Source of the DNA: a virus
Lineage: Duplodnaviria; Caudoviricetes
Direction: 5' to 3' (one strand)
Virus record (IMG/VR): IMGVR_UViG_3300020577_003313
Length of the DNA: 64,000 nt
The notes under the pieces were generated by a model. It was not told the origin of the DNA. It saw only the letters and a list, made by a program, of their open reading frames with translations, and did not search any database. Positions 41,701 through 58,828 of the stretch are shown here, in pieces. The position numbers and the translations under genes were made by a program. Every line of letters starts with the position of its first letter. The stretch's first letter is position 1.

Positions 41701-41806
41701 TGGTAGGCCGGGTGGGACTCGAACCCACGATCATCCGCAAATCAGGCGGCTCCATTTCTGGGCCGGATTATAAATCCGGTGCATTAACCAACTATGCTAC
41801 CGGCCT
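41701..41806 (-). tRNA. tRNA-Ile(UAU), 106 nt with 34-nt variable region
   Basis: Perfect acceptor AGGCCGG/CCGGCCT, stem CCGGA-TT TAT AA-TCCGG, TTCGAGT, ACCA. Confidence 0.8.
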
Positions 41807-44728: not shown

Positions 44729-44808
44729 TGGTCCCTAGGGTGGGAATTGAACCCACATGTATCCAATTAACCTTTCTATCGCGTATCAGGCGAAGGGTAT
44801 ACCTAGGG
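44729..44808 (-). tRNA. Atypical D-armless tRNA-Ile(GAU)-like RNA
   Basis: Acceptor CCCTAGG/CCTAGGG+ACCA, TCGC-CT GAT AC-GCGA, T arm GTGGG-TTCAATT-CCCAC; only 8 nt where the D arm belongs. Confidence 0.65.
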
Positions 44809-44815
44809 TAAAACT

Positions 44816-45286
44816 ATGAATCAATGTCAAAATAAAGACTGCAACAAAGAGACTAAAAATCCAAGATTTTGCTCAAAATCCTGTTCTGCAATAGTAACAG
44901 GATCAGAAAGTCATAAACGAAAAAGAACTAAAACTTGTAAAGTATGTAGTGCTTTAATTACGTCAGAAAAAACTTTCTGTAGTAATCTCTGTTACTCTAA
45001 AGGTAGAGCAAAACGAAGAACTACTAAGCCAATTGGTTATGAGAGAGTAAAAAATTTCAGAGCTAGATTGAAGCAACAAAGTATTGACTACAAAGGCGGA
45101 AAATGTAGTATTTGTGCTTACTCTAAATGTACAAAAGCTCTTGAGTTTCACCATTTAGATCCTACTCAAAAGGATTTTGTAATCAGTAGTGTTTCTAAAT
45201 CATTTGAAGCAATAAAATATGAACTAGATAAGTGTATTTTAGTTTGTGCAAATTGTCATAGAGAAATACATGACAAAATGCTCTAA
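44816..45286 (+). CDS. HNH endonuclease (tRNA-Ile cassette)
   Basis: YKGGKC..C, LEFHHLDP, KCILVCANCHREIH; N-terminal FCSKSC zinc fingers. Confidence 0.88.
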   Translation: MNQCQNKDCNKETKNPRFCSKSCSAIVTGSESHKRKRTKTCKVCSALITSEKTFCSNLCYSKGRAKRRTTKPIGYERVKNFRARLKQQSIDYKGGKCSICAYSKCTKALEFHHLDPTQKDFVISSVSKSFEAIKYELDKCILVCANCHREIHDKML

Positions 45287-45305
45287 CCAACTGAGCTACC
45301 CAGGG
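45279..45305 (-). pseudogene. Orphan tRNA 5' fragment (acceptor 5' strand + D arm)
   Basis: CCCTGGG-TA-GCTC-AGTTGGTTA-GAGC-A; pairs 7/7 (one G-U) with the 3' acceptor strand at 44733-44739. Confidence 0.8.
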
Positions 45306-47893
45306 TTAAGAAGAAGTCCTTAGACTTCTTCGATCACTTCGAAACTGTCATTGTCGAAGATGGTAAGACTAACGTTCTTAGTCTTAAGTTCGTGAAACCT
45401 TCTGAAGGTATTGATGATACTCTTCAGTTCCTTCATCTTAGCTTTGATGAACTTTTCTCCCTTTACCTTTTCCTTAAGGTTCTTGGAGACATAGTTAGTT
45501 CGCTCATATCCGAGATCATCGAGCATGATCACGAAATCTGAGTGAGACATTCCACTGTTCAAACAATTGAGAATTGTAGCTTGATTGTTCTTGAAGAACG
45601 TGCTGTGCTGAATCTTAGCACAGATCTCAATGCAGCTAAGCTTAGCTGCGTTGTAGTTTACCTTGTGGTCATTGAGGAACTTACCCCAAATATAACAACG
45701 AGGCGCGCTGATCTTGTACCTAGCCTGAAGGGCTAGACACAGCGAATTAACAGTGTGGGGGGTTTGACCTTCGAGCATACCTTCAACGAAGGTATAGACT
45801 GCCGTGCAGAGGGTACGCCAAGAATTACGCTCCTGTCTATGCGCAACCTTGTAAATTCGTGCAGCGTCTTCGATCTTAGTTAGAAGTTCGTTCTTAACGA
45901 GAGTCGTCATATTTTAAGTATCTAGAAATTTCTCTATATCGTTGATAGGAATGTATCCTAAATGATAAAGCCTATCAGCAATTACCTTTTTAACAGCATT
46001 AGCATCTAGGTTCCTTTCAGATAGATATTCATAAATATCTAAAAGTTCTTCCTTGATGTCTTGAGGCTTATTGAAAGGCCAATTGTGATCTTTATCCATT
46101 AGGTCCATAAGTGAAAGAAAATTTCTGAAAAAGCTTGCAGCCCTTCGTCAATTTCTTTATTTCCTGCTTTAACGAGAGGATCATAGTAATTTTCCATTGA
46201 GTTCAGAAAATTAAACACTCTCTTGGCTAATTTTAGCTTTCTTTGAAACTCTGGATCTGGGCATGCATGTTCAAAAGCATTCAATCTTGGAGCGATGAAT
46301 CTGACGAAAGTTTCATCAAGATTCCATAGCTCGGTATCATCAAAGCCGCGCTTCTTTAGTTGCTTCCTATATTTCTTGATTCTTTTATCATTCTTTGGAA
46401 GGGTATGGAGATACCCATGGTATCTAACTGGCTTTTTCATTTTACTCTGATTTCCATTTGATAAACTTTCTGATGGATTTAGCTACTTCTTTGGCAGTAG
46501 TTTTGTTGCTCATAGGAATCATCTCTTTAGCCCATGGCATATAGAGAGTTCCAGGAACAAATAGCCCATTCAGCTCGCTGCCGGTAATTCCAAAGAAATC
46601 ACATACTTGCTCATGCCAATCTTCACCTCTTTTTTCAGGAAGATCCTTACGGGCTACTAGAAGGAAGTCGTAGTACTCTTCCCATTTCCAAGTCTTTGGG
46701 AAGACTTTTGGAGTCCAGCCAATAGCGCAGCATACTGTGCCGCACTCATGGCCTCTGACCTTCTTACTGAAGGTTACGATTTCAGAGAAATCGAACTTAC
46801 TTGCTGGAAGCTTCTCAAGAAATCTTGCGAGCTTTAGAAGTCTTCTTCTTTGTGTCAGGTTCATGTTTCACCAAAGACAGATATGCGACGCGCCTGACGT
46901 TAAGGTCAAGCTCTTCTCTAAGCTGATAAGTACTTAAGTAACTCAGAAGACTTTTACCAATTTTTAGATAAAGGTAATCGTTATAACCTGGTCTGCGTTC
47001 AAATTTTACACAGAACCCCTTTGGTTTTCTGTTAGAGATTCTAACTTTGAACCCTGTTGGATTCTTTTCCAAGGACTTCCAAATTCTTTTTGGAAGATAT
47101 TTTTTTAGCCCTGCTGCACAAAAGCTTTGAATACAGTCATTAGGTTTAACGCCCAGCTCCCAGAATCTAAGCTTGCAAATATTATCATTAATGTATCTAA
47201 AATCTACAAGAATTTGATTCTTCACTAGATTTCCTTCTTCTTATTCCAAGAAATCTTTAAGATATGCTGTTGACGTATACTAGGATCGTCTAGTACTGCT
47301 CCATCAATTACATTATATCCAAGTTCTTTCAGTTTTTGTGATACATTATTTGTGATGATTAGAATATCATCAGAAAAAAGATATTGCGCGCCGGAACAAG
47401 TGTTCCAAATATCAATAGATGTTGAGTCGCATCCTAAGTTAGCTAACTTGGTGATACAATTAAAAGCTTCTTGGTAAGCTTTATCTTGATAGCTAATTAG
47501 CTCCTTGATTTTCAGCTGTTCCCGCTCTTTTCTCTTTTTCTCTGCAATAGCTTGAGCGTCTTTAGCGGTAATTAAGTTCTTCACTTCTTTGCAGTTCCTT
47601 CCCAACGCACATCGCGCGGGATGTAGGTTACAGAAGAATGGACGGCCGACGCGCCGTCCCTGTCAAGAACAAGAAAGATATAGCCCTGCTTGCTAGGGAG
47701 CTCAAACATGAACATCCCATCAGTAGTAGGCAGATCGGAGATCTGCTTAAACTCAAGATGAGGAGGAGCAGCCTGCGGAGCGGGCGGCTTTTGTGGGTAA
47801 GCCATACCCACGATTCCAAAAATCGTGAACAGAATCATCACAAAGAGAAGACAGCCTTCAAGTTTAGGACGGTAGTTCATAATTTTGATTAAA

Positions 47894-47970
47894 TGGCGCT
47901 TCCCCTAGGAATCGAACCTAGAACCCCCAGATTAACAGTCTAGTGCTCTAACCAGTTGAGCTAGGGAAGC
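47894..47970 (-). tRNA. tRNA-Asn(GUU)
   Basis: Cloverleaf, CT-GTT-AA, GCCA end. Confidence 0.9.
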
Positions 47971-47976
47971 AAGAAA

Positions 47977-48411
47977 TGGCGGGAGTGATGGGACTCGAAC
48001 CCATCTACTTAGCGTGCTCTATTCTGTGACAGTTAGCACACAAAACTATACATTTAGCTATCTCATTTTTGAGACGCTCATCTGACCATGTTTTAGATAC
48101 AGCTTTAGATACATCTAGGTCTTTTTGACTAGGGTCAAGATGATGAAATTCCAATGCTATTGGATTTGAGAATCCACATTTAAAGCACGGATGTTGTAAT
48201 TTGTACTCATTGATTAGAGTCTTTAGTTCTAATCTTCTTTGTCTTGTCCAATTAGTGGATCTTTTATGATGAGTACTCTTATGGTTTTGATACCATTTAT
48301 TCCAAGTGGCTTTTCTTACTTCTGGATCTTTACTGGGCATACAACCATATACGATTGTACTACACAAAAAGATCGACAATCTATTGCACTAACCAATTGT
48401 GCTACACCCCC
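47977..48411 (-). pseudogene. tRNA-Asp(GUC) split by an HNH gene (5' part 48411-48370, 3' part 48004-47977)
   Basis: GGGGGTG pairs with CACTCCC; D arm and TT-GTC-GA loop on one side, T arm + GCCA on the other. Confidence 0.85.
48005..48340 (-). CDS. HNH endonuclease inside tRNA-Asp
   Basis: PCFKCG, LEFHHLDP, KCIVLCANCHRIEH; ATG at 48340 preferred because the track start lies inside the tRNA. Confidence 0.88.
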   Translation of the reverse strand: MPSKDPEVRKATWNKWYQNHKSTHHKRSTNWTRQRRLELKTLINEYKLQHPCFKCGFSNPIALEFHHLDPSQKDLDVSKAVSKTWSDERLKNEIAKCIVLCANCHRIEHAK

Positions 48412-48415
48412 AGAT

Positions 48416-48488
48416 TGGAGCGGTCTAAGGGATTCGAACCCTCTTCATTTGCTTGGAAGGCAAAGTCCTCTCCCAGGAGAAAGACCGC
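48416..48488 (-). tRNA. tRNA-Gly(UCC), shortened D arm
   Basis: GCGGTCT/AGACCGC, CT-TCC-AA, U73 + CCA. Confidence 0.8.
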
Positions 48489-48491
48489 ATA

Positions 48492-48606
48492 TGGTGGGTT
48501 GAACGTCACCACTCCTAGTCCCAGTATTAAGAGATGGGCCTCTATCTAGATGCGAATAATACGCTTAATGTTGGTCAAGAGAAGCTAGTAACGTGATTAG
48601 GAACCC
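48492..48606 (-). ncRNA. Putative 115-nt CCA-ended non-tRNA RNA
   Basis: GGGTT/AACCC+ACCA ends, TCAC/GTGA and CTAG/CTAG helices, three internal hairpins, no T or anticodon arm. Confidence 0.45.
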
Positions 48607-48649
48607 AGCTTCACCGTCCGTAGTTCTCCTACGGCCCTATTTTAAGCAT

Positions 48650-48734
48650 TGGTGGGAATGGCAGGACTCGAACCTGCGTAAGTCAGAGACGGTGGATTTA
48701 CAGTCCACTGGAATTGCCGCTATCCCACATTCCC
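48650..48734 (-). tRNA. tRNA-Tyr(GUA)
   Basis: CT-GTA-AA, long variable arm, ACCA. Confidence 0.9.
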
Positions 48735-49029
48735 GTGCGTCACTATTCGGTAGTGACGGGATAATTTGTCTTACCATCAAGATTTGCAAGATACTCAGCT
48801 ATAGAAAGAATAGCAACTTGCCTAGTACTTGAAAACATATCTTTACTTACAGCAGAATCAAACCATTCCGCTGCTTTTTTAATGTATTTATTTTCCATAT
48901 TGGGCTCATTCTTAGAGAAATATAATTTGATGGCATCTTTGGGACATTTAGGGCACGTTCCTTTGTATGTGCCTTCAACATGTGCTCCACAATAAATGCA
49001 TTTCGTTTTTCCCATATAGAAATCAAGTC

Positions 49030-49875
49030 TCAAACATAGAGCTTGATGTGCATCTCAATGTCTTTAGGATCCATAATGACCGCGCATTCGTCCTGACGGA
49101 CGCAATCATGTGTCATATCACGCTGGAATTTAAAATCAAAGCAGGCGCGATTTGGAACATCTCCAATCTTAAGGTGAAGACTACCAGGTTCTTCGTCGTT
49201 ATCGTAGATAAGGAAGTATTTTCCACGAGGAATATCGCCGATCCTCATTAGAGAAGGCTTATTCTTGCGAATATATTGAATTTTAACGCTCATTTTTATA
49301 TCCTAGAAAATAGAGTTCAGTTCTCTAAATAGAGAATTTGATATCCATCTCAATGTTTTCAGGCTGAACAATGATTGCGCAGGTATCAATTCGAGCATCA
49401 AGATGATCTACGTAAATACCTCTTCTCAGATCAAAATTGGCTCTGTTTGAGATAGGTCCAACCTTAACGAAGAGTTCTCTTCCATCTGAACTACAAGAGC
49501 CATGTGTAATAGTAAAGTACGATCCTTCGGGAATATCGTCAATTCTCCGCAGTCTAGAAGCTTTACTAGGAAGACGTTCAATTTTTACGTTCATTTTTAT
49601 ATCTTATAGGATTTGACTATTTACATAGAAAACTTAATATCCATTTGGATATTATCGTTTTTCAGAATAACCGCGCAAGGATCTTTGAAGCAATCTTCGT
49701 GACTAAGAACTGTCCCAAGTCCCAGACAAAAACAAGTCCGAAATGGCGGTTCTTTCATCTTGAGATAGAGATTAGTAGGACCTCCGCAGGCAACAGTAAA
49801 AAACCTGCCAGCAGGAATGTCACCAATAGAAATTAGCTTAGGATGGCCAGGAATACACTCGATTTTTACTTTCAT
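49030..49875 (-). repeat. Three tandem paralogous ~85-aa genes (49030-49293, 49325-49594, 49621-49875)
   Basis: M.VKI...I(G/D)DIP.G.(Y/F)F...CA.I....I.M.IK. Confidence 0.75.
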
Positions 49876-50327
49876 GTTTGTATATCAAAGAATGAATTTC
49901 GATTTTATTAAGAACCATCCGCACCCGAAATCCTAACTTCAGATGGTAATCCCTGTGTACTATAATCTCAGAGGAAGCCGGGCTGAAAATAGCTACTAGC
50001 AGTTCCCCAGATCACTTTAGAATCTTCTTGTTTATATTCTGGCTGAAACAATTTATGCAGAATATTGTATTCGCTTTCTGTAATCGGCATTACAGTAATA
50101 TCTGCTATCCATTGACTAAACGAAAGATCATCCCAGCCTTCATTAGTACCAAAATAGATACTAAAAAGACCGTGCTGAAGGTAATGCTCTTTAATTTGAT
50201 CTTGAAGTTCTTGCCACTCAGACAGTGGCATAGCTGCAAAAGCACTACTAGTAAATTCGTCTGCCCAATCTTTTTGAACTGTAGCAAGAATATAGCTTTT
50301 TTCAGACATGGATCTAGTTTATAGAAA

Positions 50328-50404
50328 TGGTGGAGCTTCCGGGTACCGCCCCCGGCTGATACCTGCTTGCAAAGCAGGGGATCACTCTTGCAATCCCAAG
50401 CCCC
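50328..50404 (-). tRNA. tRNA-Ala(UGC) with non-canonical T and D loops
   Basis: G3:U70 pair, TT-TGC-AA, T-loop GGCGGTA, ACCA. Confidence 0.8.
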
Positions 50405-50411
50405 TCGGTAT

Positions 50412-50487
50412 TGGTACCCTGTAGGAGATTCGAACTCCTTTCTACAGATTGAAAGTCTATTATTCTAGCCGATTAAACTAACAGGGC
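50412..50487 (-). tRNA. tRNA-Glu(UUC)
   Basis: Cloverleaf, CT-TTC-AA, ACCA. Confidence 0.88.
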
Positions 50488-50491
50488 GCCC

Positions 50492-50932
50492 TTAGGCTTT
50501 AAGACAAGCATTTAGCTTCCAAGCTAACTTGCTTTGGTCCATTAACTTGCCTTGCAAGTAGTTCTGTAATCCAAGTTTCTTTTCTTTGCCTGCCAGACCA
50601 GATAGCTCAGTTCCTAGTTCGATAATTTTTTGATTATCATCTCTTAGTAGACTTAGCATGGTCGGCGCGTCTTGGATTGCGTTAACCTGATCATCTATAG
50701 TAGTGAGTTCTTTGAATCTAGCCAAAGAACCGGGAGCATAGCTCCCTAGCTGTCTGATTTGCTCAGCAATATCATCTACAGCTTCATAGTAGTCTGTATA
50801 GATGTCACTTAAAAAAGCGTGCATCTCGTTGAAGTTTATACCTTCAACATTCCAGTGAAAATTATGAGCTTTTAGGTATACACTAAAGCAGCTAGCTAGG
50901 TACACCTTCATTTTTTGTATTAGTTCGTCCAT
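50492..50932 (-). CDS. dps: Dps/ferritin-like protein
   Basis: KAHNFHWNVEG.NF.EMH, DDIAEQIRQLG. Confidence 0.88.
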   Translation of the reverse strand: MDELIQKMKVYLASCFSVYLKAHNFHWNVEGINFNEMHAFLSDIYTDYYEAVDDIAEQIRQLGSYAPGSLARFKELTTIDDQVNAIQDAPTMLSLLRDDNQKIIELGTELSGLAGKEKKLGLQNYLQGKLMDQSKLAWKLNACLKA

Positions 50933-50995
50933 ATTACTATCCTACCGATATAATCGGTATACGAACTAGAATACAAGCACTGGAAATTTTTTTGC

Positions 50996-51728
50996 TTACT
51001 TATAGTAAGCCTTGAAAGGACCACGGATAACCGTGTACTGGTAAGGATCCTTACAGATAAGAGTCCTACTTTTGACTCTGACATTAGGCCAGTCCTTCCA
51101 AGGACTGCCATCTTTGCATTCCAGAGTGTTCAGCATACGATATGGCTGACCCCATCTAGCAATGAGAAATTTACCGCTGATAGGATTTTCGTAGTAATTT
51201 GAGACTTTACAAGAACCTTCGAACATCCTACCGTCTTCGAGAATGTAACGAATAGGTTCACCCTTGATTTCAAGGGTATAAGAATTGAGAACCTTCGGTT
51301 TCTTCTTAGAAACCTTAGGAAGTTTCAAGATCCCGTATTGATCGACATACAAGCTATGCCTTGGGATCCAAAGGCAAAAGAATGCGTTGCCAGCTAACTC
51401 TGCAAGGAATCTTCCCATCATAGATGGGATATCTTTCAACCCAATCATTGATGTGATCTCTGATATGGTTGCCAGCCATGCCTCGGAAGTCGAGCTCAGA
51501 GATCTCAGACCAGACCTTATTCCAAGGTCTGTTCACTTGCTTCCACAGCCATCGCTTGATGGGAGGAAGACGATCGAGAAATCGTGCTCGGACACTCTCG
51601 CTCTTACCCCGAATGGGGTCGCGCATCGACTCTCGTTCAGGCAGATCTTCCAGATCTTTATCCCGACCCTTCCTGATGATATACTTGTACCGACCCGCTT
51701 CAGTGACGATTTCGTGAAAGTCTTTCAT
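50996..51728 (-). other. Probably one gene split over two frames (51354-51728 and 50996-51448)
   Basis: N-part RWLWKQVNRPWNKVWSEI...HIRDHI; the expected LYVD..GIL motif continues in the +1 frame at the TAG. Confidence 0.35.
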
Positions 51729-51738
51729 AGAAAAAAGA

Positions 51739-51805
51739 TCCTAGATAAAAATTGATAAGAGTGTTCATCATTAATGGTAATGTACTCCTACCGAGCATTC
51801 TAGGA
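51739..51805 (-). ncRNA. Minimal Y-RNA-like gene (67 nt)
   Basis: 7-bp terminal stem, ATGCT/TTTTTA internal loop, second stem, TACAT; same scaffold as 53123 and 53322. Confidence 0.7.
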
Positions 51806-51807
51806 AT

Positions 51808-51886
51808 TGGTAACGGGGGCGGGATTTGAACCCGCGAATGCTAGGTTATGAGCCTAGAGACTTGGACCAGACTTGTCGACCCCGCG
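51808..51886 (-). tRNA. tRNA-Met(CAU), initiator-like
   Basis: C1:U72 mismatch, CGCGGGG start, CT-CAT-AA, ACCA; only two of the three typical G-C anticodon-stem pairs. Confidence 0.8.
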
Positions 51887-51948
51887 GTACTAACTGTCTA
51901 ACACAGATGTACGCTTACTAAAGCATACATCTATATTTTTTTAGCAAA

Positions 51949-53073
51949 CTAGTTGCCGAGGTTCTTCAGCGACTGTCCAGTGAAGTACAGCACCTCTGTA
52001 CCTGCAACTAGCTTGCGGTTCCAAGAAGTCGATCTGACATAGACCGTCCACTTGGCACTAAATGCTGGATTCAGCTTGATAGTCCCACCAGCTGGGATAC
52101 CGAGCAGATCACGTGCGTGTTCCCCTGCATATAGGGAACCAGTTGAGTTTTCCTTGATGACAAGATCCTTGAAATCCTGAACGGTTTCAGCCTTAGTAAG
52201 CTGGTAGAAGCCTCTACCAACTTCATAAGTGACACCCTTCTTTCTGAAGAAATCAGAAATTACAAGGTTGTCATTGGCTTTCACAAAGAAAGCCATAAAC
52301 TGGTTACTGACATTAGTCAGATTTCTCTTTACATCAGTCTTAGTCAGGTCTTCGACCTGAGGAATGAAGAAAGATCTATTGCTAAAGCTATCGTTAGCAT
52401 AGCAAGCATATGTAGCTTGGATGCCTCTAGTGACATTCTTGGCCACTTCAGAGTATCCCTTCTTAGACTGTTCCCATTCGGTAATACAGCCTTTTGGAAT
52501 ACCGAAGTTAGCCGCAGTATCTGTAGCTCCAGGAGGAACACAGAAAGCAAACGTCCACTTATCAGTAGCAAGGGCAGTCAAGATTGCATTCTTGCAATCT
52601 TCAGTAGTGTTCTTAGAGCAATTCTCTTGACCATCAGTCAAGACAATCAGCATGTTAGCATCGTTCTTGGAACTATGCTTTTCGATATGCTGGATGCTCT
52701 CAACAACTGCATCACGAAGCGGCGTTCCGCCATCAGTGATATAGCTACTTTCATCGACCTCGCCGAGGTCCTTGATATTCTCGAACTGAGAAAGTTCGAT
52801 GTTAGCTCCGGCCTTCCAAGTCAATCCTCTGCCAACTTCAACTGTGTTGAATGTGCCAATTGCAAGAAGAGTTTCCTTGAGACCAGGAATCTTCTTCTCG
52901 GAGTTTTCCTTGATAGCTTGGAGCTGAGTATTCACAGCATTCAGGGTATCCTTAGTCCAAGATCTCATGGAACCCGATGCATCAATCATGATTACAACAT
53001 TAACGTTGTAAGGAGCATTCTTTGCCTTCTTCTTAAAGGCGATAGTCTTATTCTTCTTCTTAGTCTTGATCAT
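51949..53073 (-). CDS. vWA-domain protein with C-terminal GRGFYQLTK...STS.NRKL domain
   Basis: DASGS, GGTPLRDA, LTDGQEN. Confidence 0.8.
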   Translation of the reverse strand: MIKTKKKNKTIAFKKKAKNAPYNVNVVIMIDASGSMRSWTKDTLNAVNTQLQAIKENSEKKIPGLKETLLAIGTFNTVEVGRGLTWKAGANIELSQFENIKDLGEVDESSYITDGGTPLRDAVVESIQHIEKHSSKNDANMLIVLTDGQENCSKNTTEDCKNAILTALATDKWTFAFCVPPGATDTAANFGIPKGCITEWEQSKKGYSEVAKNVTRGIQATYACYANDSFSNRSFFIPQVEDLTKTDVKRNLTNVSNQFMAFFVKANDNLVISDFFRKKGVTYEVGRGFYQLTKAETVQDFKDLVIKENSTGSLYAGEHARDLLGIPAGGTIKLNPAFSAKWTVYVRSTSWNRKLVAGTEVLYFTGQSLKNLGN

Positions 53074-53122
53074 TGTTACCTTAGCGCAAAGTTATTTCCT
53101 AAAAGTATTTAGGAAAAAAGTA

Positions 53123-53252
53123 TCCTGAATAAAAATTGATAAGTCGTTTACGCGTTCTACCAATTGAACTACGACCGCATGGTGCGGTCGGTAGGACTCG
53201 AACCTACAACCTCGATCTCCAAAAGATGTAGACCTATCGGAGCATTTCAGGA
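53123..53252 (-). ncRNA. YrlA-type Y RNA with circularly permuted tRNA-like domain (130 nt)
   Basis: Order T arm (GTAGG-TTCGAGT-CCTAC), closed acceptor CGACCGC-ACCAT-GCGGTCG, D arm (GTTC-AATTGGTA-GAAC) inside a terminal stem; near Ro60. Confidence 0.85.
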
Positions 53253-53253
53253 A

Positions 53254-53314
53254 TGGGCGGGTGTGCTAGATTTAAACTAGCATAGCTAAGCTGTTTTGAT
53301 TAAACTAACACCCG
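53254..53314 (-). ncRNA. 61-nt anticodon-less mini-tRNA
   Basis: CGGGTGT/ACACCCG+CCCA, D-like and T-like arms, anticodon arm reduced to AGCTTAGCT. Confidence 0.6.
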
Positions 53315-53321
53315 AAAAAAA

Positions 53322-53437
53322 ACTCAGATAAAAACGTTGAGATGATTGCCTCCCCGGAACCGTCCTAGGCATGCACGAGTCGAACGTGCTCAGGGTTCTA
53401 TTCTAAGTAAAATGTAATCCCAACAAGCATTCTGAGT
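53322..53437 (-). ncRNA. Y-RNA-like gene with T arm (116 nt)
   Basis: ACTCAGA/TCTGAGT stem, ATGCT/TTTTTA loop, TACAT, GCACG-TTCGACT-CGTGC; 19 nt after the Ro60 stop. Confidence 0.75.
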
Positions 53438-53456
53438 ATACTCAATACGATTCTGA

Positions 53457-55115
53457 TTACTCAGAATCGTTGTCTTGTGAATTGGAAGCCTGGATAGATG
53501 TCTTGATGAGATCCACCCAGCTAACTCCCTTTGGCCTAGACACGAACGCCGACATGACATTGAAGATTACATTGCTGAAACCTCCAATATTCATCACATC
53601 ATCCGATGTCGAAGCCTGTGACATTGTGTTTGGGCTCAAGTCAATGAGGACAAGCTTCTTGTCCCCAGACTTGTTATAAGCTCTCCACAATTCTTGTGTC
53701 TTCGTTTGAGCAGCTCTAAGACCTGCGGATACAGTTGCACTGTACCGACTGTAGTAGTCAGCCCAAGATTCGTTATCACTGATAACAATGACGATGTCAT
53801 AGTTATCGTTCTTGATGTGCTCTAGACAGCACGAAACGCTCGTGCCACCTGATTGAGACTTGCTTTCAACGAACGCAGTGATTTCACCAAGTCTCTTGGT
53901 GCTATCAATCGCGCTGTTCCTACTAGCACTATCGAACTTGATGTTAGTATCAAAAATATGAAGATCAGCGTTACCACTGTTCTTCTTATAGATACCAGCA
54001 CCAATCAAGCAAGCTGCCTGTAGGCAGCTCATAGAGCTAGTAGCACCTTCTCTATTTCCAGTTACAGAAGTGCCCATAGAGCCACTACCGTCGATGAAGA
54101 TTGCAATCTTACCCTTCATCTCTGGAATGTTCTTGACCGTAAGGTCAAGCGCATCCTCAAGAGCGTTCTGAATTGCCTTCTCCTGGACAGTGTTGTGCTT
54201 GATCGCAGTGTAGATTTGGTATGGGAACACGCGCGAACGTGCTACCATAGTCTCATCTTTGAGACGATCTGCAATTACCTTGACCATCTTCTTGTCCTTA
54301 AGGACATTATGACGATCAAATGTATTGAGATTCATTCTCGTGAAATGCCAATTACCATTGGCAGCAAGCTGCAACCAATGATTATCGGTCAGTTCTTGAC
54401 CAGTGATTAGCTGGAAATCAACAACTGGGATCGTGCGCGTCTTGTCCTTCTTCCACTCTTCAAATTCCTTGAAGATGCTAGGAAGATCGTCGTAGCGGTA
54501 AGTCTTCTTTGAATCAGTATTCCCCGCCGGGTATCCCATGATCCACTTGAACGCAGCCTGACGGGCTGCATCCTTGGGCTTTGGATGAGCAAGTCTGATG
54601 ATATCCTTCAACGAAGGATCATTACCAACAGTTGCGTTAAGCAACTGCTGATCCGTCATCCTATTGAGATGAGCAGCAACAGAGTTGGAAATGGTAGAGC
54701 CGAGGCTCTTTCTACCAACCTTACCAGATCGAACCATCTGGATAAGATTACGAATCATCTTCGCATTATTGATAACGCGAGGATAAAATTGACGGAACAG
54801 AGACGGATCTCTCACAGAGAGAATTGCCATAAGCAAAGCTGGCATATCCTTCATGAAGCCAAAGCTTCTCGAATAGACAGCCATATTTGCCAAGGTTACA
54901 TCAGTGCATCCCAAGGACAGCTCAATTACCTTATCCAGCTGCTCTTCAGCAGTCGAATAGAAAGTATTGTTAAAGCAGCCAGTTACAGCTAGCTGAGCCA
55001 GAGCCTCTTCCTTGCCCTTATCATAGCTAAGGCCGCCGCTCTTGTTGACGACAACTACAGCGCGCGTCGCCTTCTTAGCCTTCTTCTTGCTACCAAATAA
55101 ATTCTTGTTAGACAT
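53457..55115 (-). CDS. rsr: Ro60/Rsr TROVE + vWA RNA-binding protein
   Basis: LAQLAVTGCFNNTFY, MKDMPALL, RSGKVGRKSLG, DIIRLAHPKP, RMNLNTF, VFPYQ, DGSGSM, ISDNESW; start at MSNKNLF. Confidence 0.92.
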   Translation of the reverse strand: MSNKNLFGSKKKAKKATRAVVVVNKSGGLSYDKGKEEALAQLAVTGCFNNTFYSTAEEQLDKVIELSLGCTDVTLANMAVYSRSFGFMKDMPALLMAILSVRDPSLFRQFYPRVINNAKMIRNLIQMVRSGKVGRKSLGSTISNSVAAHLNRMTDQQLLNATVGNDPSLKDIIRLAHPKPKDAARQAAFKWIMGYPAGNTDSKKTYRYDDLPSIFKEFEEWKKDKTRTIPVVDFQLITGQELTDNHWLQLAANGNWHFTRMNLNTFDRHNVLKDKKMVKVIADRLKDETMVARSRVFPYQIYTAIKHNTVQEKAIQNALEDALDLTVKNIPEMKGKIAIFIDGSGSMGTSVTGNREGATSSMSCLQAACLIGAGIYKKNSGNADLHIFDTNIKFDSASRNSAIDSTKRLGEITAFVESKSQSGGTSVSCCLEHIKNDNYDIVIVISDNESWADYYSRYSATVSAGLRAAQTKTQELWRAYNKSGDKKLVLIDLSPNTMSQASTSDDVMNIGGFSNVIFNVMSAFVSRPKGVSWVDLIKTSIQASNSQDNDSE

Positions 55116-55165
55116 CTCAATGTCCTTGAGTAAATTGTTAGGAACTATACGAACCAGCCCGTCAA

Positions 55166-55507
55166 TCAGACGGGCGGAGTATCTTTGTAGATCGTCTTGT
55201 TGGCACGCTCGATCCACTCTTGAGCCTCACGCAAGGCCGCGATGAGCACCAGCACATTGTTTTCGTTGGCCGATGCCGACCGACCCCAGGTGCCATCCTT
55301 CTTCATGAAGGCTCGCTCGAAGGTGACGGAGAAGAAATTCTTCCCGTCCTTCGTGGGATTGGTCCAGATCGCCACACGGAATGGTGACATACGAACCACG
55401 TGCGTGGGCTTCGTGCTCCGTTCCATAGGAACGGGGATCTGATTGACCTGAACTTGGGTTTGGGTCTTGGGAGCAGAACGACGAGACTTATTGAGAGAAA
55501 CAGTCAT
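55166..55507 (-). CDS. Small PC4-like putative ssDNA-binding protein
   Basis: VAIWTN..KDG...SVTFERAF..KDG.W. Confidence 0.45.
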   Translation of the reverse strand: MTVSLNKSRRSAPKTQTQVQVNQIPVPMERSTKPTHVVRMSPFRVAIWTNPTKDGKNFFSVTFERAFMKKDGTWGRSASANENNVLVLIAALREAQEWIERANKTIYKDTPPV

Positions 55508-55975
55508 TTTTGTTACAGAGTTGTGAAAAAATTGATGATCAGAGATGTGTTACTTAGGTTCGCTATCAGTTGTGTTTGTTTGAGATTCTTCTTGTTTGTC
55601 TCCAAGATAGCTTGAAAGAACAAATTTATGCCACTCAGGATTTTCCTTCTCACACTCTCTAATTGAGATCAAGAGCGGCATTACTTTATTCATATTGAGT
55701 AGAGATAGTAGTTCAAAAATTGCAATACCTCCAATCTCAACGAAAGGAGACAAATGAACACCAATCTCGTAAGCTGGCAAGAGCAAAATTGCCCAAGCAA
55801 TTAGCTCGATCATGATCATTGTAAACCATGACGCGCCTGTAGTTTTCTTGAAATAGCTATAGCCATACCAGTAGTCAGTTTTCCATTCTATGGTTCTGAT
55901 ACCATAGTGAAAAACAATGTATACGGCAAAGAGAAGAGTCGCGATTTGTCTCGGATTTTCCATGTGTATAGTTGG

Positions 55976-56385
55976 CGGAAGTAATAGTATACTATGTTCC
56001 TAATCTTTTATACTTGTCTTTTCTTATTTGTCTGTATTTTTCTCTATTTCTGTCACGCCACTGTTTTTGATAGTCTTTAGGCGTAAGCTTACTTTTTTGC
56101 TTATTGGTTTTAGCAGAACAATTACATGATAAGTGGCTGAAAGATATGTTAGTTATATCAAAGAATTTTTCTACAGGATTTTGGCTATTTAGCCAAGGTA
56201 TCTTATGTTCTATAGAAAAATCTTTCCTTGTAAGAGGAAGTGAACAACGAAAACATATATTTTTGCCAATTTCAAGTAACAAACTAAAAAGTATATCTTT
56301 CATTAGTCTGTAACTTGCTGTACCTGGATTCATTCCAAGTTGTATTTCTTTTTTAGATTTCACAAAAAGGATACGGAAGTAATAG
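55976..56385 (-). repeat. 12-bp direct repeat CGGAAGTAATAG (55976-55987 and 56374-56385) flanking an HNH gene
   Basis: Repeat equals the 3' end of tRNA-Ser(GCU); only the distal copy is followed by CCA. Confidence 0.85.
55992..56363 (-). CDS. HNH endonuclease at the tRNA-Ser 3' end
   Basis: CFRC, SIEHKIPW, NISFSHLSCN. Confidence 0.8.
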   Translation of the reverse strand: MKSKKEIQLGMNPGTASYRLMKDILFSLLLEIGKNICFRCSLPLTRKDFSIEHKIPWLNSQNPVEKFFDITNISFSHLSCNCSAKTNKQKSKLTPKDYQKQWRDRNREKYRQIRKDKYKRLGT

Positions 56386-56460
56386 GATTCGAACCTATGG
56401 ACTTTTTACAGTCTCATCTTTAGCAAAGATGCGCCTTAAACCAAACTCAGCCATACTTCC
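56374..56460 (-). tRNA. tRNA-Ser(GCU), CCA not encoded
   Basis: TT-GCT-AA, long variable arm, G73. Confidence 0.88.
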
Positions 56461-56465
56461 GTATG

Positions 56466-56554
56466 TGGCGGTGATGGTGGGGTACGATCCCACAGAGCTT
56501 TTTACACTCGCATCCTTTCCAAGGATGTTCCTAAATCCATTTCGGCTCATCACC
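56466..56554 (-). tRNA. tRNA-Ser(GGA)
   Basis: TT-GGA-AA, long variable arm, T-loop ATCGTAC, GCCA. Confidence 0.8.
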
Positions 56555-56901
56555 AAAAGGTGGTAGAGCTATTTCCAGATTTCTTTTCTAAGAAGTTCAC
56601 TCATGTATTTGATAGCTTTGGCTTGAAGGATTTGCCATTTCTTAAGCTCGCTGTCAGTAGCTGGTCTCAAGCAATGTACAAATTGACTAGATTGCCCTCT
56701 TTCTATGTGAGTAGCATGACCATGCCAATTACCATTTTCAATGGTAAATGAATGGTAGTATCCTTCGTATGGTCTGTCAATCTTTCTTTTTCCGTCACCG
56801 GTTGAATAAGTAGATCCTACGGTTGTCTTTCTAGGTAGATCTTGTGGAGCAACATCCGGTTCGATATGCCAGTAGTCCATGATTATTTGTACTAATCTGA
56901 A

Positions 56902-56945
56902 TGGTACCCTTACCAAGACTTGAACTTGGAACCTACGGTTTAGAA
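56902..56945 (-). pseudogene. 3' half of a resident tRNA-Arg(UCU)
   Basis: T-TCT-AA-ACCGT-AGGTT-CCAAG-TTCAAGT-CTTGG-TAAGGGT-ACCA. Confidence 0.85.
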
Positions 56946-56977
56946 TCTTGAATTCTAATTTGTAACACGTAAATTAG

Positions 56978-57065
56978 TGGTACAGCTGGTAGGATTCGAA
57001 CCTACAATTTGGTTGCCCAACCAGATTAGAAATCTGGGCCGTTATCCATTTCCGGTCACAGCTGC
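56978..57065 (-). tRNA. tRNA-Arg(UCU) with long variable arm (88 nt)
   Basis: CCAGA-TT TCT AA-TCTGG, variable arm TTGG-GCAA-CCAA, A after the D-loop GG, ACCA. Confidence 0.85.
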
Positions 57066-57073
57066 ATGAAATT

Positions 57074-57421
57074 ATGAATACGTGTACAAAATGTAAATGT
57101 TCAGGACCCTTCTACAAGAAGGGTAACAGGAATACTTCTTATTGCAAAAATTGTTTCAATTCTTATTGTATGGAAAGATGGAAAGAAAAGAAACAAAAAG
57201 CAATAGTATACAAAGGTGATTGCTGTTTTGATTGTAAACAGCAATATCATTACTCAATATATGAATTTCATCACTTAGATCCAAAAAGTAAAGACTACAA
57301 TTGGTCTAAATTGAGAATGAAGTCTTGGGCTTCCATAGTCAAAGAACTAGACAAGTGCGTAATGTTGTGCGCTAATTGTCATAGATCTAGACACTGGGAC
57401 AAAGATAACTCATCCAGTTGA
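57074..57421 (+). CDS. HNH endonuclease (tRNA-Arg cassette)
   Basis: YKGDCCFDC, YEFHHLDP, ELDKCVMLCANCHRSRH. Confidence 0.88.
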   Translation: MNTCTKCKCSGPFYKKGNRNTSYCKNCFNSYCMERWKEKKQKAIVYKGDCCFDCKQQYHYSIYEFHHLDPKSKDYNWSKLRMKSWASIVKELDKCVMLCANCHRSRHWDKDNSSS

Positions 57422-57432
57422 GCTATAAGGGC
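57409..57432 (-). pseudogene. 5' fragment of the resident tRNA-Arg(UCU)
   Basis: GCCCTTA-TA-GCTC-AACTGGAT-GAG; GCCCTTA pairs 7/7 (one G-U) with TAAGGGT of the 56902 half. Confidence 0.85.
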
Positions 57433-57748
57433 TTATGTATAGACTACATACGCGCTTAGTCTACATGATATCTAGCACAATGCAATTCATCTTTTACATG
57501 ATCCCAGATACACAGCCAAAACTCAGCAGCCTGAGCCTTAGTGAGTTCTGAAGCTATTTCATTAGCCAAGAACATAGCAAAAGCAGAACGGCAAGCACAA
57601 AGGAACAGAAGTACAGAACCTGGATTCTCTAGATACTTATCTTTTAGCTCCGTAGCCAAAAGGCGCAAGCTATTTGCAGACAAGATAACCTCGTCTGTGC
57701 TTTCTCTAGTTGGCAATGGTGGTAAGGATGCCATTTTTTTTAGGAAAT

Positions 57749-57795
57749 TGGTAGACCGGGTGGGAGTTGAACCCACACGAATAATCCGCTTAAAA
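57749..57795 (-). pseudogene. 3' half of a resident tRNA-Lys(UUU)
   Basis: T-TTT-AA-GCGGA...GTGGG-TTCAACT-CCCAC-CCGGTCT-ACCA. Confidence 0.8.
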
Positions 57796-57828
57796 ATTGT
57801 AAATTTTAAGATGATCAGGTCGCAAAAA

Positions 57829-57917
57829 TGGTGGGACCGGTGAGATTCGAACTCACGGTGGACTTTCGTCGCCCGCTTAAAAGGCGGATACCATCGACCA
57901 ACTCGGTACACGGTCCC
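57829..57917 (-). tRNA. tRNA-Lys(UUU) with long variable arm (89 nt)
   Basis: GGGACCG/CGGTCCC, CT-TTT-AA, variable arm GAC-GAAA-GTC, ACCA. Confidence 0.85.
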
Positions 57918-57924
57918 ATACAAT

Positions 57925-58455
57925 ATGGACATCCAAGATCAACTTAAGAAATTATACATTGATAACAGATTATCAATACTAGATTGTTCAGAAAAATTAG
58001 GTATTTCTGCAACAAAAGTTAAATACTATCTTAGTAGATTTCAAATCAAACGAAATCAATATACTAAAATAGACGGTACGTCTGAAGATAGAATTTGTAC
58101 AAAATGTAAGACGTTAAAAAACGTTTCAGAGTTCTATTTCCAGTCTTACAAAACTTCGGATAGAAAATCTAGACAAGGTTCTTGGTGTAAATCTTGCATG
58201 TCTAAACAAGTTATTGAAAGACAACGCAAGTATAAACAGCAAGCAGTTGACTACAAAGGCGGAAAATGCCAGAATTGTGGCTATAGCAAATATCTAGGAG
58301 CACTAGAATTTCATCACTTAGATCCTACTCAAAAGGATTTCGAGATGTCTAAATTTACTAAATCTCCCTTAGGAGATTTTGCTAAGGAAGAACTAAATAA
58401 GTGCATATTGCTTTGTGCTAATTGCCATAGAGAAGCACACGAAACAAAAGTGTAA
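57925..58455 (+). CDS. HNH endonuclease (tRNA-Lys cassette)
   Basis: N-terminal HTH-like + CxxC; YKGGKCQNCG, LEFHHLDP, KCILLCANCHREAH. Confidence 0.88.
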   Translation: MDIQDQLKKLYIDNRLSILDCSEKLGISATKVKYYLSRFQIKRNQYTKIDGTSEDRICTKCKTLKNVSEFYFQSYKTSDRKSRQGSWCKSCMSKQVIERQRKYKQQAVDYKGGKCQNCGYSKYLGALEFHHLDPTQKDFEMSKFTKSPLGDFAKEELNKCILLCANCHREAHETKV

Positions 58456-58828
58456 GCTTTGCTCTACTTGGAATAAAGCATTTCGATCAATCTTCCAAGA
58501 GGCGCGGCGCCTTCTGCAAGATTTGCGAAACCCTTTGGCATTGATTCACCAACAACAACAAAAAGTACAACAGCAAGACTAATCTTGCTTACAGCTTTAG
58601 CAAAGCCAAAGTCTGTCAGATAGCCTCTTGCATCTTTTTCCAAATTCTTATCCGCTCCAGCAAACAGAGCGATCATAAGAATTATACACAAAAATGCCAA
58701 TGAAGTATGGCATATACCAATACTGGTACAGTATGTACCGCGTTGCTGGATTAGCTCTTGCCATGCGGGATTGACGCCCTCTTTCATGGCTTTGAGAATT
58801 TCCAGCATTTGCTTTTGTAGTTCTTCGT

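Follow-up and report, generated by a model that had tools for sequence, protein, structure and literature searches.

Phage HNH endonuclease genes inserted with a same-anticodon tRNA inside cognate tRNA genes: probable mobile cleave-and-replace cassettes

We analysed a stretch of 64,000 nucleotides (nt) of DNA from a virus of the Caudoviricetes (IMG/VR record IMGVR_UViG_3300020577_003313; hereafter the window, meaning the whole stretch), in which HNH endonuclease genes stand beside complete transfer RNA (tRNA) genes and among broken pieces of other tRNA genes. Units made of an HNH gene and a tRNA gene were found inserted inside cognate tRNA genes, recurrently, and in at least two cultured phage lineages the insertion was recent. 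These units are probably mobile cleave-and-replace cassettes, each composed of a free-standing HNH homing gene and a linked, complete tRNA gene of the same anticodon and of different sequence or architecture. According to this proposal, during a mixed infection the nuclease would cut the ordinary tRNA gene in a phage that lacks the cassette, near the junction of the D-stem and the anticodon stem in the case of the Arg, Lys and Ile units, and as the break is repaired both the nuclease gene and the tRNA linked to it would be copied in. The resident gene would be left as two dead halves, later decaying, and invasion of a useful gene would cost the phage little because the incoming tRNA would keep the decoding function. 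We infer from the sequences that the HNH makes the break, that the companion gene is immune to cutting because it does not have the target sequence, and that the companion tRNA is charged and used. The observation itself is real and represents a variant of the free-standing homing endonucleases.

The earlier note on this DNA, which was made from the letters themselves, had described three related HNH genes running on the plus strand against the genome-wide orientation, with their ATGs 7, 8 and 7 nt from the 5' end of complete, structurally atypical minus-strand tRNAs, head to head, and these coordinates and distances were confirmed. HNH gene 1 (44816-45286, +, 156 amino acids (aa), 7 nt from its tRNA), which is antisense to the operon, HNH gene 2 (57074-57421, +, 115 aa, 8 nt) and HNH gene 3 (57925-58455, +, 176 aa, 7 nt) lie in a window whose minus strand carries 13 of the 13 open reading frames (ORFs) of at least 250 aa as well as all of the tRNAs. 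Read along the minus strand, each locus consists of a 5' piece of a tRNA gene, the antisense HNH gene, the short spacer and the complete tRNA gene, followed at the Arg and Lys loci by a 3' piece. Two of the complete tRNAs, tRNA-Arg(UCU) (cassette tRNA 2, 56978-57065, -, 88 nt) and tRNA-Lys(UUU) (cassette tRNA 3, 57829-57917, -, 89 nt), were detected by ARAGORN and have the properties of canonical tRNAs, namely a cloverleaf, a 7-nt anticodon loop and Rfam scores of 48.8 and 48.6 bits, respectively, against a threshold of 29. Both bear an extra variable-arm hairpin, with a GCAA loop in the Arg and a GAAA loop in the Lys tRNA, which is unusual for tRNAs of these two specificities. The predicted fold of the Arg tRNA was a cloverleaf with the extra arm (z -3.5), and the Lys tRNA also folded as a cloverleaf with the additional hairpin. 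Cassette tRNA 1, a non-canonical tRNA-Ile(GAU)-like gene (44729-44808, -), was missed by ARAGORN and scored 31.5 bits with the Rfam tRNA model and 94 bits with our custom model R1.

The proposal that each cassette abuts broken pieces of an ordinary tRNA gene held fully for the Arg locus and in part for the other two. At the Arg locus we found both the 5' remnant of the resident gene (57408-57432, -), comprising the acceptor strand and the D-arm, and the 3' remnant (56902-56946, -), which runs from the anticodon loop (UCU) to CCA, includes an orphan T-arm and pairs through its acceptor strand with the 5' remnant at 57432. The Ile locus has a 5' remnant with acceptor strand and D-arm (45279-45305, -) and no 3' remnant; the pairing partner of its acceptor strand is a 3' acceptor strand 549 nt away. 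At the Lys locus the 3' remnant, from the anticodon loop (UUU) to CCA (57749-57796, -), was read from the sequence and with an orphan-arm search, and what may be a trace of the D-arm of the resident tRNA-Lys amounts to a weak match of 8 nt, GTAGAGCA (58460-58467, -), overlapping the stop codon of the upstream ORF. Since the acceptor strands of the separated halves are complementary at the Arg (GCCCTTA/TAAGGGT) and Ile (CCCTGGG/CCTAGGG) loci, the separated pieces belong together. As had been claimed, the 3' piece carries the same anticodon as the complete cassette tRNA, UCU at the Arg and UUU at the Lys locus, and the HNH stop codon lies inside the D-arm remnant in the Ile and Arg cases: the TAA of HNH gene 1 is in the D-loop, and the TGA of HNH gene 2 derives from the TCA of the D-stem/loop. 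This Arg 5' junction, with the HNH stop in the D-stem, recurs in phage Bas92 and in one of the homologous loci surveyed below (L101; L numbers are our own labels).

The three plus-strand HNH proteins, encoded by intact ORFs, are 39-64% identical to one another over their aligned parts. Curated profiles named 'HNH endonuclease' matched these three and a fourth protein of the window (4/4, E 1e-24 to 4e-35): PHROG 2255 for genes 1 (E 1e-24), 2 (E 6e-27) and 3 (E 4e-35), and PHROG 3106/2255 for gene 4 (E 1e-27). No HNH match was obtained with Pfam at E 0.01, and the PDB sequence search returned a single weak match, McrA (E 0.06), so the family assignment follows from the PHROG profiles. FHHLDP, CxxC and C(A/S)NCHR..H were invariant in the alignments, with conservation of the catalytic His/Asn/His and of two CxxC zinc pairs. 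HNH gene 4 (48005-48340, -, 111 aa) belongs to the same family and was overlooked in the earlier count of three. It lies on the sense strand and interrupts, in the variable loop, a tRNA-Asp(GUC) gene (47977-48411, -) that apparently has kept all its parts; no replacement or other tRNA-Asp was found within the window. The idea that long variable arms are scars of variable-loop insertions like this one was considered and was not supported.

A near-DNA search of phage records gave no near-identical record for the window, searches with two small neighbouring proteins in IMG/VR, one of them also against metagenomes, gave no close relative, and an exact search with the 3' half of the resident tRNA-Arg gave no relative. 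With the Ro60-like protein of the window as query, the sole relative was 33% identical and had no tRNAs or HNH gene nearby. Evidence on the mechanism was therefore drawn from homologues of the HNH genes. HNH gene 2 is 55% identical to the HNH of Bas92, which is placed alike in a tRNA-Arg(UCU) gene.

Bas92 is one of the Kuraviruses of E. coli, which carry a single tRNA, Arg(UCU) (PMC9965538). In LAMP and phiEco32 the ordinary tRNA-Arg(UCU) gene is intact and has no HNH, thus representing the empty allele. The flanks of Bas92 match those of LAMP, with 9 nt (AGCAGTAGC), from the 3' strand of the D-stem to the 5' strand of the anticodon stem, replaced by about 530 nt that contain an antisense HNH gene together with a complete tRNA-Arg(UCU), different from the resident one, at a head-to-head distance of 6 nt. 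On the right, the junction coincides precisely with the anticodon loop, just as it does in the window, and the HNH stop is the same TGA taken out of the D-stem. TH38, Ptacy1479 and Ptacy1532 were also filled with the Bas92 HNH and tRNA unit. Bas93 has kept the 5' half of the resident gene, which is followed by a different, sense-strand HNH gene and a non-canonical tRNA-Arg(UCU), and in Bas94 a non-canonical tRNA-Arg(UCU) stands alone at the locus; this is the sole tRNA of both phages. A whole-genome Rfam scan detected one tRNA-like gene per genome, at this locus and always Arg(UCU) whichever the allele, in 4/4 Kuravirus genomes. The HNH of Bas93 (L086 948-1397, 149 aa, sense) belongs to a second, unrelated HNH family and, like the HNH of Bas92, is inserted where the D-stem of the Kuravirus tRNA-Arg gene meets the anticodon stem.

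A second pair of filled and empty sites was found in Klebsiella phages. More than 20 Klebsiella and Proteus phages (Vequintavirinae-like) bear an intact non-canonical tRNA-Arg(UCU) and no HNH insert, among them Iguana_ER37, where the gene is annotated as tRNA-OTHER only. KP12 and K18PH07C1 have flanks 99-100% identical to those of the empty phages, with 5 nt of the T-stem (ATGCG) replaced by 496 nt that hold a sense-strand HNH gene of the window family and a canonical tRNA-Arg(UCU), which in KP12 is 90.7% identical to the companion tRNA of Bas92. The roles are reversed here, the non-canonical tRNA being the victim and the canonical one the replacement in KP12, and the other way round in Bas93; both architectures therefore displace each other, each time with a nuclease gene. 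Presence and absence of an insert at one site among near-identical genomes, by which free-standing homing endonucleases are recognised, was thus observed for the homologues in both Kuravirus and Klebsiella phages. The earlier note had proposed that resident tRNA genes are replaced and that cassette-free relatives should be compared; the near-identical LAMP and Iguana_ER37, with their intact tRNA-Arg(UCU) genes, show replacement directly, in those phages (LAMP versus Bas92, Iguana_ER37 versus KP12) and not in the window phage. The states observed, with both halves, with one half or with the tRNA alone, agree with the life cycle that homing elements usually follow.

The neighbourhood of the HNH genes was surveyed in 63 non-redundant IMG/VR loci homologous to the window HNHs (set 1) and in the 80 loci closest to the HNH of the window Arg locus, gene 2 (set 2). 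In set 1, 59/63 loci had tRNAs within 1.5 kb (median of 6 per locus), the family thus being almost confined to phage tRNA clusters, and an ORF end lay at most 10 nt from a tRNA boundary in 27 of the 63, whereas 500 trials of random placement gave 5.2 on average and 13 at most. Where complete tRNAs flank both sides, their anticodons were equal in 6/29 cases versus 5% expected (p = 0.003), and one copy of the pair was an 85-91 nt long-arm form in five of these six. Split genes that keep the anticodon loop had the anticodon of the insert tRNA in every case (6/6). In a tree of the HNH proteins, the enzymes beside Arg(UCU), Asn(GUU) and Ile(GAU) tRNAs fell in separate groups, the window Arg HNH grouping with that of Bas92, and thus HNH lineages track tRNA identity. 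Among set-2 loci, 43/80 had a tRNA-Arg(UCU) within 200 nt of the HNH, which bears out the flank analysis suggested in the earlier note, and several lay between halves of the same anticodon: a tRNA-Arg gene split around an HNH gene and a complete tRNA-Arg(UCU) was seen in L093/L094, L101 and L107 of set 2 and in L044 of set 1, with L101 showing the same order and stop-codon junction as the window.

Normally only Leu, Ser and Tyr tRNAs have a hairpin in their variable region. Across L004-L083 (for example L030, L046, L050, L076, L031 and L007), such a hairpin was present in many tRNAs for Asn, Ile, Lys, Cys, Met, Thr and Val, 82-97 nt in length, and these long-arm tRNAs often stood beside an HNH gene and a normal-length copy of the same anticodon.

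All four arrangements of HNH and tRNA order and orientation occurred among the homologues. The head-to-head layout seen in the window and in Bas92 is consequently one of four and not the defining trait. This diversity would also be expected under the main rival explanation, that the pattern is a by-product of repair, in which the HNH cuts a tRNA gene, the break is repaired by recombination with whatever similar tRNA gene neighbours the nuclease gene in the donor, the tRNA of the donor serves as a homology arm, and the matching anticodon and the halves arise mechanically with no selection for a replacement. The 11 nt (CCTTCTAAGCT) common to the companion tRNA of Bas92 and the resident gene, as well as the tRNA-Asp insertion, agree with such a process, and the phage T4 homing endonuclease SegB spreads neighbouring tRNA genes by co-conversion (PMC2330249). 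We nevertheless judge it unlikely: the companion tRNA of KP12 and that of Bas93 differ in architecture from the resident one and have little similarity to it at the junctions, and still the anticodon was kept, and the presence of one working-looking tRNA-Arg(UCU) per Kuravirus points to selection on function.

Several results weigh against the cleave-and-replace cassettes that we favour. The idea of a fixed module of HNH and tRNA had to be rejected, because the companion tRNAs of orthologous HNHs were unrelated and all four orientations occurred. The fourth HNH sits in its tRNA-Asp gene with no replacement tRNA, and a promoter scan upstream of the antisense HNH genes gave no site above shuffled sequence. 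As the searches gave no phage closely related to that of the window, neither empty sites at its own loci nor recent mobility could be seen. Finally, repair driven by homology, and not selection for rescue, could be part of the reason why the anticodon is shared.

The separated halves might also be spliced together, so that the resident tRNA is still made from an intron-like interrupted gene. Some tRNA genes in neighbouring loci do contain group I introns, tRNA-Leu(UAA) in L020 and L068 being examples, and no part of the tRNA-Asp gene seems to have been lost. On the other side, no Rfam group I intron was detected in the window at E up to 1, the inserts consist of an ORF, a tRNA and a few tens of nt and could not accommodate a ribozyme core as well, the filled/empty pairs have lost 9 and 5 nt from essential stems, and the HNH gene is antisense in three cases. 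Splicing is accordingly very improbable, and intron identity of the inserts was rejected on the grounds of the missing Rfam intron, the lack of space for a ribozyme and the lost stem bases. As a separate matter, the tRNA genes (for example Leu-UAA) of L020 (502-1273), L068 (112-883), L023, L036 and L083 bear group I intron-like inserts of 170-700 nt in the anticodon loop, that of L068 with an antisense HNH-like ORF of another family, and look like ordinary intron-bearing genes.

The Ile-like cassette tRNA and the non-canonical tRNA-Arg(UCU) belong to one class without a normal D-arm. In the Ile-like tRNA (44729-44808) no D-arm was found between the acceptor stem and the anticodon arm; instead, positions 11-13 pair with the three bases 3' of the anticodon arm, and a D-loop-like UAAUUGG follows this helix. 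The layout of the class is an acceptor stem, UAU, a 3-bp helix around an anticodon arm with a 4-bp stem, UA(A/G)UUGG and a T-arm. The new helix was paired in 11/11 aligned sequences, with covariation on both sides in all three pairs; 99% of the alignment cells pair, and none of 500 shuffles reached the observed score. The minimum-energy fold of cassette tRNA 1 agreed with the re-wired structure. A search of 88 sources with a covariance model recovered about 24 members, whose anticodons are GAU, UAU or UCU, and the Arg form was present in 137 records of cultured phages (phi92, rV5-like, Klebsiella and Salmonella phages), mostly unannotated or entered as tRNA-OTHER. Examples of the Arg form are L090 1501-1574 (phi92), L091 317-395 and L087 855-936. 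Indirect pointers to a possible function are that Bas93 and Bas94 have no tRNA other than the non-canonical one, that U33 is conserved, as is a purine at position 37, and that the aligned Arg members of Bas93, Bas94, L005 and L023 have an A after the GG, which we take to be the counterpart of A20, an identity element for arginyl-tRNA synthetase (ArgRS). Literature searches returned no description of this re-wired class, and according to a 2024 paper every tRNA known from bacteria is canonical (PMC11551756). D-arm-lacking tRNAs of mitochondria are alike in having no standard D-arm; the phage tRNAs differ in that a short helix encloses the anticodon arm and is followed by a D-loop-like GG element, and in that they occur in phages of bacteria.

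Unusual tRNAs could instead be anti-defence cargo, that is, tRNAs kept mainly for escaping host defences that cut tRNAs, with the HNH spreading or amplifying them. Bacterial anticodon and variable-loop nucleases are known to target Lys, Arg, Asn, Ile and Tyr tRNAs, and phage tRNAs to rescue infection (PMC11464382, PMC11555353, PMC10264068), and SegB amplifies tRNA-Tyr against Septu. Long variable arms and a re-wired fold would alter recognition by such nucleases. This account leaves the placement inside cognate tRNA genes unexplained, the sequences gave no sign of a host nuclease at work, and canonical and non-canonical alleles are both invaders, in different phages; as the principal cause it seems to us improbable, more so than repair alone. 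Defence escape and cleave-and-replace are compatible and do not exclude each other.

Extending the cleave-and-replace cassettes to all these observations, one may tentatively picture an arms race between phage tRNA genes and homing endonucleases, a scheme we hold possible rather than likely. The HNHs would be natural cleave-and-rescue drives, each with an uncuttable isoacceptor, and the pressure to lose the target site would have yielded working re-wired tRNAs, with the D-loop behind the anticodon arm or, in tRNAs for Arg, Lys, Asn and Ile, with additional variable arms. Displacement would go back and forth between canonical and re-wired alleles, and the latter would be the first non-cloverleaf tRNAs in bacterial translation.

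That homing endonucleases are associated in general with the tRNA clusters of phages is already known from SegB, the F-Tfl enzymes of T5 and the cluster M mycobacteriophages. We found no published case of a nuclease with a same-anticodon replacement inside a split tRNA gene, in a check that did not extend to the overlap with cluster M (Pope et al. 2014); the earlier note, whose author knew of no description of the architecture, agrees with our literature searches. SegB is a free-standing GIY-YIG homing endonuclease in the T4 tRNA cluster that cuts within tRNA genes of related phages (T2L tRNA-Asn) and is co-inherited preferentially with neighbouring tRNA genes (PMC2330249; PMC13096335). It resembles what we propose for the cassettes in being a cutter of tRNA genes encoded among them and inherited with its neighbours, and differs in its fold, in sitting between genes and splitting none, in having no same-anticodon replacement inside a broken gene, and in recognising the common T-loop rather than one tRNA species. 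According to papers that cite the original descriptions, the HNH ORFs of T5 (F-Tfl enzymes) lie within the tRNA cluster and HNHs are implicated in the tRNA repertoire of the cluster M mycobacteriophages. They are also HNH ORFs of phage tRNA clusters and have been implicated in differences in tRNA repertoire, and the citing papers mention no split cognate gene with a replacement.

Homing endonucleases of group I introns in tRNA genes are likewise selfish nuclease genes inside a tRNA gene whose function is preserved. There, RNA splicing restores the function, whereas the cassettes contain no ribozyme and leave the resident gene destroyed, its place being taken by another gene that is complete. 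Integrases of prophages and islands target tRNA genes and bring a copy of the tRNA 3' end, so that a mobile element again mends the disrupted gene with replacement sequence; they differ in using site-specific recombination, in bringing a partial copy identical to the target and in belonging to temperate elements in bacterial chromosomes. The same logic underlies engineered cleave-and-rescue (ClvR), reportedly the work of Oberhofer, Ivy and Hay in 2019, and home-and-rescue gene drives, which pair a nuclease that attacks a necessary gene with a linked copy, recoded and uncuttable. Those drives are synthetic, Cas9-based and made in animals, and the phage case would be a natural, protein-guided counterpart.

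To our knowledge, homing endonucleases have been thought to enter useful genes only within a self-splicing intron or intein, and otherwise to settle between genes. A third solution appears here, in which the gene is destroyed and an uncuttable spare is brought along, apparently the logic of cleave-and-rescue drives in nature. If true, it would explain why phage tRNA clusters are highly variable, hold many HNH genes and are littered with tRNA fragments. The class of tRNAs without a normal D-arm, missed by annotation tools, is present in phi92, in Bas93 and Bas94 of the BASEL collection and in many Klebsiella phages, and these ideas are therefore testable with cultured phages. We suggest that the re-wired tRNAs may also interest work on orthogonal translation.

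The window was recognised as phage DNA from a family A DNA polymerase, a ribonucleotide reductase with an intein, NAMPT and a Ro60/TROVE protein beside a Y-RNA-like gene, and its tRNA cluster occupies about 41.6-57.9 kb of the minus strand. Within the cluster, a 103-nt tRNA with anticodon UAU (41704-41806, -) was missed by ARAGORN and scored 65 bits with Rfam; its 34-nt variable region holds a second hairpin that resembles an anticodon arm (CCGC CUGAUUU GCGG). The Ro60/TROVE protein (53457-55217) and a VWA protein (51949-53073) are both encoded within 51949-55217 on the minus strand, and the stretch between their genes contains a YrlA-like Y RNA (53120-53252), whose score of 52 bits falls short of the Rfam threshold, as well as a short tRNA-like element (53257-53314). 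The ribonucleotide reductase is of class II (5752-8703, -), and its intein contains a LAGLIDADG endonuclease domain, which makes it another homing element of the window phage.

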